Below, piece after piece: positions 2,929 to 6,534 of a DNA stretch of 63,119 nucleotides. A program made the position numbers and the translations under genes. Source of the DNA: a plasmid; NCBI RefSeq assembly GCF_056746865.1, contig NZ_JBWKMP010000006.1; one strand, 5' to 3'. Numbering within the stretch: the stretch's first letter is position 1; each line of letters begins with the position of its first letter. The notes under the pieces are model-generated. The model searched no databases. It was given only the letters and a program-made list of their open reading frames with translations, and was not told where the DNA came from.

Positions 2929-3294
2929 TTTACTCCCCCGCTCCGGCGGGGGTATGGCCTGCCAGGCCGCCGGAAAACCCTGGCAGGCTTACGCCTGCCT
3001 GAAATGCAGGAGGGCCGCGCCTGCGGCGCTGCCCTTCCTGCCCGTCATGGTGTGAGGCATTTTTCTGTTATGTCGTTTCTGTTGTTCTGATTTCCGGAGG
3101 CGGGGACACCTTCGGCTCCCGGCTGCCTGGCGGCATCCGGTCGTCAGGCCCGACTCCGACAGGCAGCTGCTGGCGCACCCGCCAGTCTCCGCCGAACCCG
3201 CTGGCGCGGTTTCGGGCTGCCGCTACGGTCCGATGTCTGAAAAACCAGGCTTGCAGCGACCGTTCCGGTCGCGCCGCCCCTGTCGCGCCGGAAA

Positions 3295-3640
3295 CGGCGC
3301 TCCCTGCACACCTGACGGTGTGTAAGGCCACTGCGCCTGATGGCGCAGTCAACCCTTCCGCCGCCACCCCTGCGGCCTGTTTCCCGCTGTGGACTTTCCG
3401 GGGGCTGGAGTAACCACATCCCGTTTCAGCAGTCCAGGGGAAGATATACCGTCCACAAAATTTTTAGCCATAAACCCGGCAAAAAATTTTGCGTCCGCCC
3501 CGGACAGCTGCCCCGTGACGTGGTGACGGACGCCCCATCGGAAAGGTCCACTGCGGGGAGAAACCCCGAAGAAGTGGACGGCAGAAGGGGCTTTCGCCCC
3601 TCCGGGGAGCAACCGGTCGGCCCGGCGACCTGATTCAGCA
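3295..3640 (+). repeat. Frpo/ssi-like element, copy 1 (candidate single-stranded-DNA promoter)
   Basis: ~345-bp GC-rich non-coding block, about 80 percent identical over its length to 6172-6520 and beginning with the shared core CGGCGCTCCCTGCACACCT...GTGTAAGGCCACTGCGCCTGATGGCGCAG; ends just before ORF 3656. Confidence 0.5.
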
Positions 3641-3655
3641 GAAGGAGACGTTTTC

Positions 3656-4090
3656 ATGACAGTCAGCAGCACGATTTCCGTTTTTTGCCGCGACGGGGTG
3701 TTCCGTACCGTTTACTGCCACCTGCACGGTGAGCCGACCTGGAACGGTCGCATCCTGCATACCCACTATGCCACCGGTCAGCAGGCCGAAGCCCTGGTTG
3801 AACACGGTGATATCCGTTGCCTCGGTCCCCGTTGCGACAAACCCGCCGGGCATACGCTTCAGAACCCGGTGGACGGTGTGACGGCTTATTACGGACGTGA
3901 CAGTGGTTTCCGGATGGACAGTGAGGCGCGTGAGTACCGTTCTTTCAGGGAGGCTATTGCCACTGAAAGCACTGAAGAGGTGCGCTTCCATTATGTGTTC
4001 ATCGACGGCTACTGGAAGGTGATGTACCGCACGCCGGAAGGCTGGAAGATGAAAGCGCTCGCGCTGGCACTGCGTCGCTGTCCGGAATGA
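3656..4090 (+). CDS. hypothetical Cys/His-containing leading-region protein
   Basis: 144-aa ORF with AGGAGA Shine-Dalgarno, immediately downstream of Frpo-like copy 1; terminator follows. Confidence 0.7.
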   Translation: MTVSSTISVFCRDGVFRTVYCHLHGEPTWNGRILHTHYATGQQAEALVEHGDIRCLGPRCDKPAGHTLQNPVDGVTAYYGRDSGFRMDSEAREYRSFREAIATESTEEVRFHYVFIDGYWKVMYRTPEGWKMKALALALRRCPE

Positions 4091-4182: not shown

Positions 4183-4449
4183 ATGAGACCATCAATTATC
4201 TTCGCAACCGCCGAGTATGTAAAGCGTCTGCGTGAAGAGTGCCTGCGGGAGAATAAACCCCTGCACCGCCATACCCGCTTCAGACGTCAGGAGCTGGCAC
4301 AGGATGAGATTAACCCGGACGTCCTGGCGATGAGCGGCCATATCGCCAGACGCTGCAGTGAGCAGAAGCGGGTGCGTATCCCCGCCATGAAAGTCAGCGA
4401 ATGGGGCCACCTGCTCCGCGCGCTTGAAATTGAGCGGGTCTGCCACTGA
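4183..4449 (+). CDS. hypothetical small leading-region protein
   Basis: 88-aa ORF from ATG 4183 with GGAG 8 nt upstream; the ORF-track start at 4087 is an upstream extension. Confidence 0.55.
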   Translation: MRPSIIFATAEYVKRLREECLRENKPLHRHTRFRRQELAQDEINPDVLAMSGHIARRCSEQKRVRIPAMKVSEWGHLLRALEIERVCH

Positions 4450-4513
4450 TTAACCCTTGCCGTCTGCCTGTGCAGGCGGCAGGATACGTTCAGACATCTC
4501 ACCAGGAGGAACC

Positions 4514-5428
4514 GTGAGTAAGAAGAAAAACACCACAACGCCCACGCCGCATGATGCCGCGTTCCGGTCGTTCCTGGCGAATCCCGACGTCGCCAGAGAT
4601 TTTCTGGAACTGCATCTTCCGGCGGAGTACCGGCAGTTGTGCGACCTGTCCACGCTGAAGCTGGAACCCGCCACCTTTGTTGAGCCGGACCTGCATCAGT
4701 ACGCCAGCGATATCCTCTGGAGCGTGAAAACCACCGGGGGTGAAGATGGCTATGTTTATACGCTCATCGAGCACCAGAGCACCGAAAATCTGTACATGCC
4801 TTTCCGCATGTTACGTTACAGTGTGGCGGCGATGCAGAGACATCTGGAGCAGCACAAAACGTTGCCACTGGTGATTCCTGTACTGTTCTATCATGGTGAG
4901 CGCAGCCCGTACCCGTACAGCATGAACTGGCTGGACTGTTTTGAGAATCCGGCACTTGCGGCTAAAATATACACAAAGCCGTTTCCGCTGGTTGATATCA
5001 CTGTCGTTGATGACAATGAAATCATGAACCATCGCCGGATGGCCGCACTGACGCTGCTGATGAAGCATATCCGCCATCGTGACATGATGGAGCTGCTGGA
5101 CAAACTCCCGCAGGTCATGGTGGAAATTTCAGACGAGCAGGTGCGTGTTCTGATTCATTACATCGTTAACGCAGGGGACTCTGTATCACCGGAATTTATG
5201 CGGGCGCTGGCTGAGCGTCTGCCGCAGCATGAGGATAAACTGATGACTATCGCAGAACGTCTTGAGCAAAAAGGTCGCCAGGAAGGCAGGATGGAAGGAC
5301 GCATGGAAGGAGCGCTTGAAAAAGCCCTGGCTATTGCGTGCCAGCTTCAGAAAATGGGGATGACGCCGGAGCAGATTAAGCAGGCTACCGGACTTTCCGA
5401 TGACGAACTGAAGAAAATCACTCACTGA
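4514..5428 (+). CDS. Rpn family recombination-promoting nuclease (YhgA-like, PD-(D/E)XK)
   Basis: Product ...PTPHDAAFRSFLANPDVARDFLELHLP...YTLIEHQSTENLYMPFRMLRY...PLVIPVLFYHGERSPYP... closely resembles E. coli YhgA/Rpn proteins as recalled; AGGAGGA Shine-Dalgarno before GTG 4514. Confidence 0.85.
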   Translation: MSKKKNTTTPTPHDAAFRSFLANPDVARDFLELHLPAEYRQLCDLSTLKLEPATFVEPDLHQYASDILWSVKTTGGEDGYVYTLIEHQSTENLYMPFRMLRYSVAAMQRHLEQHKTLPLVIPVLFYHGERSPYPYSMNWLDCFENPALAAKIYTKPFPLVDITVVDDNEIMNHRRMAALTLLMKHIRHRDMMELLDKLPQVMVEISDEQVRVLIHYIVNAGDSVSPEFMRALAERLPQHEDKLMTIAERLEQKGRQEGRMEGRMEGALEKALAIACQLQKMGMTPEQIKQATGLSDDELKKITH

Positions 5429-5440
5429 TGAGAACCACAA

Positions 5441-5467
5441 AGCCCGGCAAAATGCCGGGCTTTTTTG
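5441..5467 (+). terminator. rho-independent terminator after rpn
   Basis: AGCCCGGCA-AAAT-GCCGGGCT stem-loop followed by TTTTTT. Confidence 0.6.
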
Positions 5468-5490
5468 TCAGCAGGAGCAGAGCAAACAGC

Positions 5491-5673
5491 ATGACGATTG
5501 CAGAACGTCTTATACAGAAAGGTTTCGACGAGGGTTTTAAACAAGGGGCTCTTGAAGTGGCGCGGGAAATAGCCTGCCGGCTTCGGGATATAGGCTGGCC
5601 GCCGGAACGGATTCAGGAGGTCACGGGACTTTCCGGTGAAGAACTGAAAAAGCTGTTTCCTGATGAGCAGTAG
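5491..5673 (+). CDS. small stand-alone paralogue of the Rpn C-terminal domain (RpnS-like)
   Basis: 60-aa ORF MTIAERLIQKGFDEGFKQGALEVAREIACRLRDIGWPPERIQEVTGLSGEELKK... with AGGAGCAG Shine-Dalgarno; aligns with the last ~60 aa of the upstream Rpn (MTIAERLEQKG...TGLSDDELKK). Confidence 0.6.
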   Translation: MTIAERLIQKGFDEGFKQGALEVAREIACRLRDIGWPPERIQEVTGLSGEELKKLFPDEQ

Positions 5674-5703: not shown

Positions 5704-5955
5704 TCACACATCCTCTGCCGTTTCCCCCAGTTCATTTTCCAGTCGCCTGATGATATCTGCCTTACGCATCCCCTGCATGTGAGGCAGCAGGTCACGGACT
5801 GAAAGTGCCTGGGTGGTCCTCCAGACGGTGACGTCCACCTGTTCCGCATTTTCCCAGGCGTGCCATGTTCTCTGCGTCACGCCAAATTCTCTGGCCGCTT
5901 TTTCGCGTGACCAGAGCATGCTTTTTCGCCAGATTCGCAGTTCCCAGCCGGTCAT
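5704..5955 (-). CDS. small helix-turn-helix DNA-binding regulator (XRE/Cro-like)
   Basis: 83-aa ORF with an HTH-like segment SREKAAREFGVTQRTWHAWE; AAGGTG Shine-Dalgarno; divergent from Frpo-like copy 2. Confidence 0.6.
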   Translation of the reverse strand: MTGWELRIWRKSMLWSREKAAREFGVTQRTWHAWENAEQVDVTVWRTTQALSVRDLLPHMQGMRKADIIRRLENELGETAEDV

Positions 5956-5966
5956 AAAACACCTTT

Positions 5967-6060
5967 GAAAAAGTGAAAAAACTTCACTTTATTTTATCAT
6001 CACAATTGCCAAATCAGCGCGATAAATAAGTGTAAAAAAGTGAAGAAATTTCACTTTTTT
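5967..6060. promoter_or_regulatory. two AGTGAA-N-TTCACT palindromes (candidate operators) in the promoter region of the HTH gene
   Basis: AAAGTGAAAAAACTTCACTTT (5969-5990) and AAAAAGTGAAGAAATTTCACTTTTT (6035-6060), AT-rich, directly upstream of the - strand HTH gene. Confidence 0.4.
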
Positions 6061-6171
6061 TGCTTGTAAATGTCGTGCGGTTTTCTCTGTTTTCACCTGT
6101 GCGGGAGTGGTGTGCCAGTGACCACCACATGCCATTGTTGTGCCGTCGTTTTTCTTCAGTCGCGCCGTATG

Positions 6172-6520
6172 CGGCGCTCCCTGCACACCTTACGGTGTGT
6201 AAGGCCACTGCGCCTGATGGCGCAGCTGTCTCTGCCTGTCTGCCGCCGCACTGCGGCCTGTTCTCCGCAGACGGACTTTCCGGGGGTACATACATGACCA
6301 CATCCCGTTTCAGTCGTCCAGGGGGGAGATGTACCAGCCACAAAACTTTTTGCCGCAGGCGTCAAAAACTTTTGCGTCTGCCCCCGGACAACTGCCCCGT
6401 GACGTGGTGAGCGTCCCCCGTCGGAAAGGTCCACTGCGGGGAAATCCCCGAAGACCCGGACGGCAGAAGGAGCTTCGCTCCTCCGGGAAATGACCTGGCT
6501 GTCCCGGCAGTCGTGACGAT
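6172..6520 (+). repeat. Frpo/ssi-like element, copy 2 (candidate single-stranded-DNA promoter)
   Basis: Homologous to 3295-3640 (same 5-prime core and shared downstream blocks such as CTGCCCCGTGACGTGGTGA and GGAAAGGTCCACTGCGGGGA); ends at the Shine-Dalgarno of ORF 6535. Confidence 0.5.
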
Positions 6521-6534
6521 GAGGAGACAATGTG

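Follow-up and report, generated by a model that had tools for sequence, protein, structure and literature searches.

Within the 63,119-nt stretch of plasmid DNA analysed here (hereafter, the window), the rpn locus is very likely rpnP2, an Rpn toxin-antitoxin and anti-phage module of IncI-complex plasmids, together with a gene for a stand-alone RpnS paralogue (RpnSs) at 5491-5673. This layout (i.e., a nuclease gene with an internal start and a downstream small paralogue) is already published and not new, and Zhong et al. 2023 cover all of the main finding. The remaining points guide follow-up and leave the current picture unchanged. The features are listed in Table 1; the coordinates given in an earlier note on this DNA all hold.

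Table 1 Features of the rpnP2 locus and its surroundings (window positions).
Feature	Position	Strand	Remark
ssi/Frpo-like single-strand promoter element	3270..3620	-	upstream of the orf144-orf88-rpnP2 string
Shine-Dalgarno AGGAGG of RpnP2-L	4504..4509	+	4 nt 5' of GTG 4514; direct reading
rpnP2, 304-aa Rpn/YhgA-like PD-(D/E)xK nuclease (RpnP2-L)	4514..5428	+	toxin, anti-phage effector
Active-site segment	4553..4777	+	D14 (4553-4555), D66 (4709-4711), E86 (4769-4771), Q88 (4775-4777)
Sigma-70-like TTGAGA-16-TAAAAT inside rpnP2	4941..4968	+	weak lead; candidate internal promoter for an RpnS transcript
Internal ribosome-binding site GAGGA	5231..5235	+	7-nt spacer to ATG 5243
rpnP2-S, 61-aa in-frame C-terminal domain from the iTIS	5243..5428	+	cognate antitoxin
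Two 12-nt repeats (EGRM EGRM), RpnS helix 1	5282..5305	+	hypervariable specificity region
Intrinsic-terminator-like hairpin and T-run	5439..5466	+	between rpnP2 and the small ORF; dG -19.3 kcal/mol
AGGAG 5' of the small ORF	5473..5477	+	13-nt spacer, long
rpnP2-Ss, stand-alone 60-aa RpnS paralogue (RpnSs/YpaA-like class)	5491..5673	+	TAG stop 5671-5673
Two 12-nt repeats (GFDE GFKQ), RpnSs helix 1	5521..5544	+

The sequence of the nuclease gene reads from a GTG start at 4514 to a TGA stop at 5426-5428. Profile searches bear out the YhgA/Rpn-type assignment proposed in the earlier note: residues 11-207 of RpnP2-L match Pfam PF04754 (Transposase_31/YhgA-like, E 2e-78), and the protein scores 181.9 bits against the NCBIfam model TIGR01784 ('Rpn family', cut-off 52.1). 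All four active-site residues are present and line up with K-12 RpnA-E, D66, E86, and Q88 falling on the D...ExQ motif, and the window differs from the published active-site mutant gBlock AO730 exactly at the D14A, D66A, E86A, and Q88K codons. We found rpnP2 in 2039 PLSDB plasmids. No model in PADLOC-DB 2023 matches RpnP2; this reflects what that library covers and does not speak against a role in defence. A PDB sequence search with the full-length nuclease (the tail of which is RpnS, not RpnSs) returned no Rpn match.

To place the gene relative to published work, the window was compared to the 'RpnP2' gBlock AO591 of Zhong et al. (data from the bioRxiv supplements), which takes in rpn with 300 bp on its 5' side and 101 bp on its 3' side. 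Among the 399 readable bases, which are the first 399 nt of the fragment, 398 are identical. The first base of the gBlock falls on window position 4214, exactly 300 bp 5' of the rpn start, and its 3' end on position 5529, as derived from the stated 101 bp downstream and from primer AO619 at 5509-5530. RpnP2 of ECOR13 and the gene in the window are the same, with no detectable difference in rpn itself over the readable first 399 nt of the fragment. Because the published RpnP2-LS construct ends 101 bp past the rpn stop, it has just 13 codons of the small ORF and omits the rest of it.

RpnP2-LS was described from an E. coli ECOR13 plasmid (Zhong et al. 2023, PNAS 120:e2307382120; PMC10400941). 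In that work, the RpnP2 iTIS mutant, which makes L alone, was toxic, whereas the wild-type LS construct was non-toxic and cells bearing it grew like the vector control (PMC10400941). RpnP2 guards against T2, T4, and the BASEL T-even phages, and deletion of rpnP2 in ECOR13 led to loss of phage protection (PMC10400941). The S form of SPA-tagged RpnP2 was detected and RpnP2-S neutralises RpnP2-L; in vitro nuclease activity was demonstrated for RpnA only (PMC10400941).

The earlier note had recognised an in-frame ATG at 5243 behind a well-spaced GAGGA and suggested that the last ~61 aa could be made separately, with the toxin held in check by a protein from its own 3' end. The internal start was confirmed, given that the ATG aligns with M244 of RpnA, a proven iTIS, inside the conserved LMTIAERL motif; the separate product and its restraint of the toxin are published for RpnP2 (PMC10400941). 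GAGGA occupies the same position as AAGGAG/GGGAG before the internal ATG of K-12 rpnA-E and is kept in both allele groups of the plasmid rpn gene. Mutation of the ribosome-binding site and internal ATG of RpnA abolished RpnS (PMC10400941). According to the literature on the same sequence, RpnP2-L, which would be a PD-(D/E)xK DNA endonuclease, is toxic alone, and ribosomes also initiate at ATG 5243 to produce a 61-aa, three-helix RpnP2-S. By the same account, the long first helix of RpnP2-S pairs with the identical domain of RpnP2-L and keeps the nuclease inactive until phage infection. Separately, the sigma-70-like site inside rpnP2 has 10/12 consensus matches, and it stays a mere lead as an RpnS promoter because K-12 rpnA-E lack such a site at the homologous position.

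Downstream of rpnP2, the small ORF encodes a diverged paralogue of the nuclease C-terminal domain that begins with MTIAERL, as the earlier note had read it. BLASTP aligned RpnSs with the last 61 aa of the nuclease at 56% identity (E 1e-18) with a single 4-aa gap, and the likeness in sequence between RpnS and RpnSs is far beyond chance. The seven N-terminal residues and a TGLSxxELKK segment are common to both. In pairwise comparisons, RpnSs scores highest with the RpnS of its own locus (58% identity); other plasmid RpnS alleles reach 44-54% and K-12 RpnS proteins 36-47%. This order would fit a local origin from the upstream gene, although the groups are separated by small margins. An AF2 model of RpnSs contains helices at residues 3-34, 38-45, and 49-55 (pLDDT 74; 57-58 for the first 20 residues). 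Its top match among 350,542 PDB chains is 7TH0, E. coli RpnA-S (probability 0.98; TM 0.58/0.74), with a Foldseek E-value of 0.34 because RpnSs is so short. RpnSs is predicted, with moderate confidence, to adopt an RpnS-like fold of a long helix 1 and two short helices. The earlier note had looked to protein searches to place both ORFs in Rpn/YhgA families; these placed the nuclease, whereas the 60-aa ORF had no significant match in a Pfam-A scan that used a Pfam copy without PF27070. Many database relatives of RpnSs bear a precomputed PF27070.1 match.

The region between the two genes contains a conserved hairpin and a displaced ribosome-binding site. The hairpin (GCCCGGC-AAAAT-GCCGGGC followed by T6, 5442-5466) is kept in all loci examined (dG -15.8 to -26.2 kcal/mol), and in one of them (L004) it shows one compensatory change from A-T to G-C. 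A consensus terminator scan did not call the hairpin at 5439-5466, probably because the stem runs into the T-run. The terminator and separate Shine-Dalgarno named in the earlier note were both recovered, the latter with a spacer of 13 nt. The AGGAG region, cagcaggagcaga, is kept in every two-gene locus, as is the ATG. Apart from a few additional bases, it looks like the sequence ahead of the iTIS, cagcatgaggata, and was therefore probably copied with the duplication of the rpn 3' end. A promoter scan found no promoter-like site between 5243 and 5490. Given the 13-nt spacer, the upstream hairpin and T-run, and this result, translation of the small ORF could be very low. RefSeq annotates the small ORF as 81 aa from an ATG at 5428, in overlap with the stop codon of rpn. 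Related plasmids do not keep this start (it is missing in L003, and L005 has a GTG instead), and every locus has an ATG at the MTIAERL position; the start at 5491, as in the earlier note, is the better choice for these reasons.

To assess whether the small ORF behaves as a gene, we used 20 related loci sampled by DNA similarity. The two-gene layout of rpn and a downstream RpnSs is found in 17 of the 20, where the small ORF is intact; one locus carries a fusion and two are truncated by an IS. Despite 8-18% DNA divergence, the ORF, its ATG, and the AGGAG are kept in all 17 loci that are free of fusion or IS disruption. Indels in RpnSs are all in-frame multiples of 12 nt. The pN/pS ratio of RpnSs (0.26) is on par with that of the nuclease domain (0.28), both values being summed over non-independent pairs from only 10 distinct sequences. 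In these alignments, RpnSs is conserved as a coding gene under purifying selection, and the pattern suggests that it is likely a translated, functional protein. The opposing case, raised in the earlier note as the outcome that would count against its proposal, is that the small ORF is untranslated and non-functional, a remnant left when the 3' end of rpn was duplicated in tandem. The ORF is clearly of duplication origin, the analogous ypaA of K-12 is a pseudogene in RefSeq, the Shine-Dalgarno is poorly spaced behind a terminator, and IS truncation in 2/20 loci had no obvious consequence. Against this, the conserved start and AGGAG, the in-frame length changes, and the pN/pS value disfavour a remnant, and YpaA is translated, as detected by an SPA tag (PMC10400941), making this explanation highly improbable.

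Both proteins vary in a repeat region within helix 1. In the 20 related loci, helix 1 of RpnS has 0-5 EGRM repeats or a GIQQ-type repeat at the same place, and the relatives of RpnSs have 0-5 repeat copies, resulting in proteins of 52-76 aa. The lengths of 334 RpnSs protein variants step by 4 aa. RpnS and RpnSs are one repeat apart in the window; in other loci the difference ranges from -16 to +20 residues, and the two do not vary together: their helix-1 lengths are equal in just one of the 15 distinct combinations (r -0.34 for the first 11 of these). In addition, RpnS occurs in at least three allele types, whereas the neighbouring RpnSs stays one type. The repeat number of RpnSs evolves independently of RpnS, its duplication parent. 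Repeat number sets RpnL-RpnS specificity, and a difference of one 4-aa repeat abolishes neutralisation, as shown for RpnC only (PMC10400941).

These comparisons bear on the proposal of the earlier note that RpnSs is a spare or back-up cognate antitoxin of RpnP2-L, adding to or buffering RpnP2-S. Such a function would fit a homologue of the cognate antitoxin that lies directly downstream on the same strand and shares both conserved segments with RpnS, and a commentary on the Rpn paper suggests that a second copy uncouples the antitoxin from the toxin and makes regulation more flexible. The published RpnP2-LS, with only 13 RpnSs codons, is still non-toxic (PMC10400941), and the single extra 4-aa repeat that kills neutralisation in RpnC equals the difference between RpnS and RpnSs in the window. 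The two proteins are merely 56-58% identical, and RpnSs keeps its sequence type while the adjacent RpnS switches. The proposal was weakened by the non-toxic construct and the uncoupled repeats, and a spare antitoxin is unlikely. Because neither the sequence type nor the helix length of RpnSs is coupled to that of RpnS, it would not be the working antitoxin of the adjacent nuclease.

A second explanation treats the small ORF mainly as a recombination donor, i.e., a stored tail that, by homologous exchange between the MTIAERL and TGLS..ELKK flanks, gives the nuclease and its internal antitoxin a new specificity in one step. RpnS and RpnSs have the first 21 nt in common and are similar in a 3' segment, which would allow this exchange. 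In the fusion alleles of L006 and H71, of a kind also noted by Zhong et al. (PMC10400941), the N-domain of the nuclease runs directly into an Ss-type tail, the junction falling exactly at MTIAERL, and the small gene is lost. Records with a fusion-allele nuclease include NZ_MZ152086 and NZ_CP018946. RpnS alleles also look mosaic, with the ends ...SEAELKNITH and ...SDDELKKITH on the same core. Such fusions are rare, at most ~28 of 1711 records (less than about 2%), which is an upper bound from one single-piece match among 60 evenly spaced ranks, given that the query merges normal rpn and rpnSs pieces. Moreover, fusion destroys the donor, a silent donor would need no conserved ATG and AGGAG of its own, and the comparison revealed no clear tract of gene conversion leading from Ss into S. 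The fusion alleles are weak support for a cassette role, and a function mainly as a donor is unlikely.

The genomic setting raises two further explanations. The locus shares its strand with ardA, psiB, and psiA and is situated between ardA and oriT/nikA; based on this position and orientation, it belongs to the IncI1 leading region. The strand logic follows what is established for IncI1 and F transfer. The ssi/Frpo-like element, 0.9 kb 5' of rpn, is 85% identical to a second copy at ~6150-6500, its minus strand folds at -111 kcal/mol (z -8.6), and it is partially homologous to the stretches of the F plasmid that immediately precede ssb and the 64.0-kb ORF. Compared to IncI1 and IncF leading-region genes (ardA, psiB, ssb; ssi/Frpo), as described in PMC12672017, rpnP2 shares region, orientation, and the upstream hairpin element; that paper states that not all leading genes are induced. 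Unlike leading-region anti-defence genes, RpnP2 is a defence-type toxin-antitoxin module and no known anti-defence protein. Furthermore, unlike ssi/Frpo single-strand promoters, the conventional promoter of RpnP2 works from double-stranded DNA in the native-promoter construct. A literature search returned no paper tying Rpn to the leading region, and a toxic defence nuclease among leading-region establishment genes is a point absent from the literature searched, including Zhong et al.

The first of these explanations, also put forward in the earlier note, is that RpnSs is an anti-defence decoy, expressed early and neutralising the Rpn nucleases of the recipient's chromosome or resident plasmids. 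The position between ardA and oriT, the orientation shared with ardA and psiB, and the ssi/Frpo-like element upstream of the gene string are consistent with a decoy, as is the enrichment of leading regions in anti-defence genes that PMC11541004 describes. Rare related plasmids also encode an RpnL whose tail is of the Ss type and which RpnSs might in principle be able to bind. Rpn antitoxins are, on the other side, strictly specific (PMC10400941), and no chromosomal Rpn tail resembling RpnSs was found, those of K-12 RpnA-E being 36-47% identical. The 5426 complete E. coli genomes gave 1982 DNA matches, 1954 of them plasmid-borne and 28 chromosomal, and the terminator hairpin stands between the small ORF and upstream transcription. 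Among representatives of 1.84 billion proteins, none of at least ~290 aa reaches 55% identity to RpnSs in the matched stretch, and near-full-length Rpn-sized proteins with a C-terminal match have at most 49%. Matches above ~62% identity are all short proteins, except a partial 33-residue match in a 166-aa protein. A decoy is quite improbable: apart from the rare fusion alleles of related plasmids, these searches turned up no full-length Rpn with a matching tail.

According to the second explanation, RpnSs is an independently selected inter-plasmid or establishment factor, made from the leading region soon after entry, and not the neighbour's antitoxin. It would then bind length-matched Ss-type Rpn tails, such as those of the fusion alleles on competing IncI/K/B/O plasmids, or alternatively sequester some phage or host factor directed at RpnS-type helices. 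Its repeat polymorphism would in that case stem from an arms race of its own, distinct from the one that shapes RpnS. This explanation, too, is improbable.

Any one specific role of RpnSs is tentative at best. RpnSs goes back to an old duplication that copied the 3' end of rpn, probably together with the stretch ahead of the iTIS. As a preferred reading, a small amount of it may be translated from mRNA that continues past the terminator, and the product would form its own homodimer. Its likeliest roles would be that of a separately tuned RpnS-type partner that engages only Rpn tails of its own type and length, and that of a resident alternative tail that can be grafted onto the nuclease by recombination, in line with the rare fusion alleles.

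Downstream stand-alone copies termed 'RpnSs' (e.g., ypaA) have been reported on chromosomes and plasmids, and separately encoded RpnS is annotated as DUF4351 (PF14261) in some species (PMC10400941); the 60-aa ORF of the window differs from the latter in having no significant Pfam-A match. The closest parallels are rpnE-ypaA and rpnC-Ss of E. coli chromosomes, in which an RpnS copy on the same strand lies directly 3' of the parent rpn and starts with MTIAERL. K-12 YpaA and RpnE-S are one 4-aa repeat apart, as are RpnSs and RpnS of the window, and they are 82% identical compared to 56-58% for the latter pair. Whereas ypaA lies 12 nt past the stop with an exact copy of the internal ribosome-binding site and no hairpin, rpnP2-Ss follows a 62-nt gap with a conserved terminator hairpin and a displaced Shine-Dalgarno. 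Unlike chromosomal rpnE-ypaA, rpnP2-Ss is plasmid-borne and far commoner: RpnSs is carried by about a quarter of complete E. coli genomes (1340/5426), on IncI-complex plasmids that spread resistance.

The ORF read in an earlier note as an Rpn/YhgA-type nuclease matched PF04754 (Pfam; E 2e-78, residues 11-207) and TIGR01784 ('Rpn family recombination-promoting nuclease/putative transposase'; NCBIfam; 181.9 bits against a cut-off of 52.1), in agreement with that reading, and the internal ATG with its GAGGA lies where the note had placed it. When aligned with K-12 RpnA-E, this ATG corresponds to RpnA M244 within the conserved LMTIAERL motif, and GAGGA occupies the site of AAGGAG or GGGAG in rpnA-E. 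M244 is an experimentally proven internal start of RpnA, and Rpn proteins are gene-within-gene toxin-antitoxin systems in which RpnS, the internally started C-terminal domain, inhibits the toxic full-length nuclease RpnL (Zhong et al. 2023, PMC10400941). The same study describes plasmid-borne RpnP2 of E. coli ECOR13, whose internal-start mutant is toxic and which confers protection from T2, T4, and BASEL T-even phages. Over the 399 readable nt of the published RpnP2 fragment, there was one mismatch to window positions 4214-4612. The locus is the published RpnP2; the structural interpretation is correct and already in print down to the same gene, including the proposal of a toxic nuclease restrained by a small intragenic protein (PMC10400941). 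The active-site mutant gBlock AO730 (Zhong et al.) differs from the window only at codons 14, 66, 86, and 88 (D14A, D66A, E86A, Q88K), which identifies the catalytic residues of the window protein. Published work on this sequence shows that RpnP2-L is a toxic nuclease, that RpnP2-S, the product of the internal ATG, neutralises it, and that the pair lowers T-even phage infection.

Features of the rpnP2 locus (window positions unless a related plasmid locus, L002 to L024, is named)
Feature	Position	Strand	Details
~340-nt elements (two)	about 3270-3620; about 6150-6500		85% identical; each just 5' of a + strand ORF
144-aa ORF	3656-4090		5' of rpn
rpnP2 ORF	4514-5428	+	GTG start, 304 aa, AGGAGG upstream
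Internal in-frame ATG	5243	+	GAGGA upstream, spacer 7 nt
Hairpin	5442-5466		GCCCGGC-AAAAT-GCCGGGC plus six T, 3' of rpnP2 stop; dG -19.3 kcal/mol
Small ORF (RpnSs)	5491-5673	+	60 aa, begins MTIAERL like the internal segment
Helix-turn-helix (HTH) gene	5704-5955	-	83 aa
Palindromes (two)	5970-5991; 6037-6058		just 5' of the HTH gene
129-aa extra ORF	L002 1727-2116; L006 627-1016; L018 7639-8028; L024 114-503

The second MTIAERL ORF beyond the hairpin is, as had been proposed, a diverged paralogue of the C-terminal domain (56% identity to the internal RpnS segment, E 1e-18, a single 4-aa gap), and all of these elements were found in place. It could also have been an untranslated remnant of a duplicated rpn 3' end. 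Among 20 related loci picked by DNA similarity, 17 have the two-gene layout with an intact small ORF, two have the small ORF cut short by IS66 or IS91 insertions, and the remaining one, NZ_MZ152086, lacks the separate gene and has its nuclease domain fused directly to an RpnSs-like (Ss-type) tail. Intact copies encode 52 to 68 aa (up to 76 aa in database variants), and every change in length amounts to whole 12-nt units inside a GF(D/K)(E/Q) repeat. Summed Nei-Gojobori pN/pS was 0.26 in the small ORF and 0.28 in the nuclease domain, compared with 0.46 in the internal RpnS segment. The intact copies, in-frame indels, and low pN/pS favour a gene over a remnant. No two-gene locus varies in the small-ORF ATG or in the cagcaggagcaga upstream of it. 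In an AlphaFold2 model (pLDDT 74), one long helix spans residues 3-34 and is followed by two short helices; its closest PDB structure among 350,542 chains was 7TH0, 'Escherichia coli RpnA-S' (probability 0.98, TM 0.58/0.74; E 0.34, the query being very short). Based on these results, we conclude that the small ORF is a conserved coding gene with a predicted RpnS fold. The downstream gene is shown here to be an old, conserved paralogue under protein-level selection, and its repeats are polymorphic in their own right, uncoupled from RpnS.

RefSeq/PGAP labels 5428-5673 as an 81-aa 'hypothetical protein', the ATG of which overlaps the rpn stop and the frame of which crosses the terminator hairpin; we rejected this start, which is not conserved. 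The newest PGAP records name a 68-aa form 'RpnC/YadD family protein' (in the related locus L022), and many database copies carry a precomputed match to PF27070.1, which lies outside the Pfam set scanned here.

The downstream gene belongs to a known class. Downstream RpnS copies have been named RpnSs (ypaA = rpnE-Ss, and rpnC-Ss) and YpaA is translated (Zhong et al., PMC10400941); commentary on the Rpn work mentions second RpnS copies as decoupled antitoxins. K-12 YpaA differs from RpnE-S by one repeat, as does the window RpnSs from its RpnS. No statement on the small copy beside RpnP2 specifically was found in the Rpn literature searched.

The suggestion that RpnSs is a spare antitoxin was weakened. 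The published non-toxic RpnP2-LS construct stops at window 5529-5530 and thus includes only 13 small-ORF codons, therefore RpnSs is probably unnecessary for restraining RpnP2-L. RpnA-S and RpnB-S do not cross-protect, and one extra 4-aa repeat in RpnC-S or RpnC-L ends neutralisation unless both have it (Zhong et al., PMC10400941). In the plasmid family, at least three sequence types of the internal RpnS occur, carrying 0-5 repeats, against a single type of RpnSs; of 15 distinct combinations, just one has helix 1 of equal length in both proteins. These differences probably point the same way as the published specificity, against a cognate antitoxin role for RpnSs.

The other suggestion, a decoy against Rpn-type defences of the recipient, found no support. 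Small-ORF DNA was present in 1340 of 5426 complete E. coli genomes, with 1954 of 1982 places on plasmids, and the K-12 RpnA-E tails are 36-47% identical to the small ORF. Among cluster representatives of 1.84 billion proteins, matches above ~62% identity were short proteins, barring one 33-residue partial match in a 166-aa protein, and Rpn-length proteins reached at most 49% tail identity. No recipient-side target was found in these genomes, tails, or representatives. The sole nucleases found with an Ss-type tail were fusion alleles on sister plasmids, which are rare (one single-piece match in 60 evenly spaced ranks of 1711 records).

Most transcripts would end at the conserved hairpin, in which one lineage has a compensatory change from A-T to G-C, so that RpnSs would be made at a low level through read-through, translated via a displaced Shine-Dalgarno seemingly copied from the internal one. 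RpnSs may dimerise as RpnA-S does, could engage Rpn tails only if they match it in type and length, and could provide a ready alternative tail for the nuclease, a joining exemplified by the fusion alleles. A comparison of window 5243-5428 with five related loci (L003, L004, L005, L020, L024) revealed at least three RpnS allele types (EGRM-repeat and two GIQQ-repeat forms) on a near-invariant nuclease domain, with the switch in L003 and L004 starting ~50 codons upstream of the internal ATG. RpnS ends look mosaic (…SDDELKKITH and …SEAELKNITH joined to one shared core), a pattern suggestive of recombination between alleles.

A 1.35-kb block with this locus was found in 2039 PLSDB plasmids (1902 conjugative; IncI1/B/O, IncI-gamma/K1, and IncK2/Z), mostly from Escherichia, Salmonella, and Shigella. 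The gene order on one strand is parB-like, psiB, psiA, orf, ardA, orf144, orf88, rpn, and small ORF, followed by the HTH gene and a small ORF (other strand), a DUF4942 gene, a mobC-like gene, and nikA-nikB. By this order, rpnP2 belongs to the leading region: it lies between ardA and oriT, with the nikA side ~2.2 kb away, and has the orientation of ardA and psiB. By the established pattern of F and IncI1 transfer, this orientation would let the transferred strand act as template. No paper in the literature searched combined 'recombination-promoting nuclease' with 'leading region'. In L019 (NZ_CP060750) and L020 (NZ_CP027341), the loci with IS66-family or IS91-family truncations, the insertions in L019 also remove rpn; plasmid survival thus does not require the locus, at least in some hosts.

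The two ~340-nt elements bracket a 2.9-kb block with rpnP2; the first precedes orf144 (at 3656), orf88, and rpnP2, and the second the DUF4942 gene (at 6532). The first forms a single long hairpin on the minus strand (-111 kcal/mol, z -8.6), and parts of both match the F plasmid just 5' of ssb and of the 64.0-kb ORF. They look like ssi/Frpo-type single-strand promoters, resembling those of IncI1 pESBL and F; not every leading gene is induced (PMC12672017).

Some GenBank records call the 144-aa ORF 'post-segregation killing protein PndC', whereas RefSeq has it as a 'hypothetical protein'; it had no PADLOC match. A further hypothetical ORF of 129 aa, which the window lacks between 4449 and 4514, sits directly 5' of rpn in many sister plasmids, pESBL-EA11 among them; there is a 4-nt overlap between its stop and the rpn GTG, and its translation may be coupled to that of rpn. 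The HTH gene converges on the small Rpn ORF (stop codons 30 nt apart), and the near-identical palindromes AAAGTGAA-N6-TTCACTTT look like candidate operators of this regulator.
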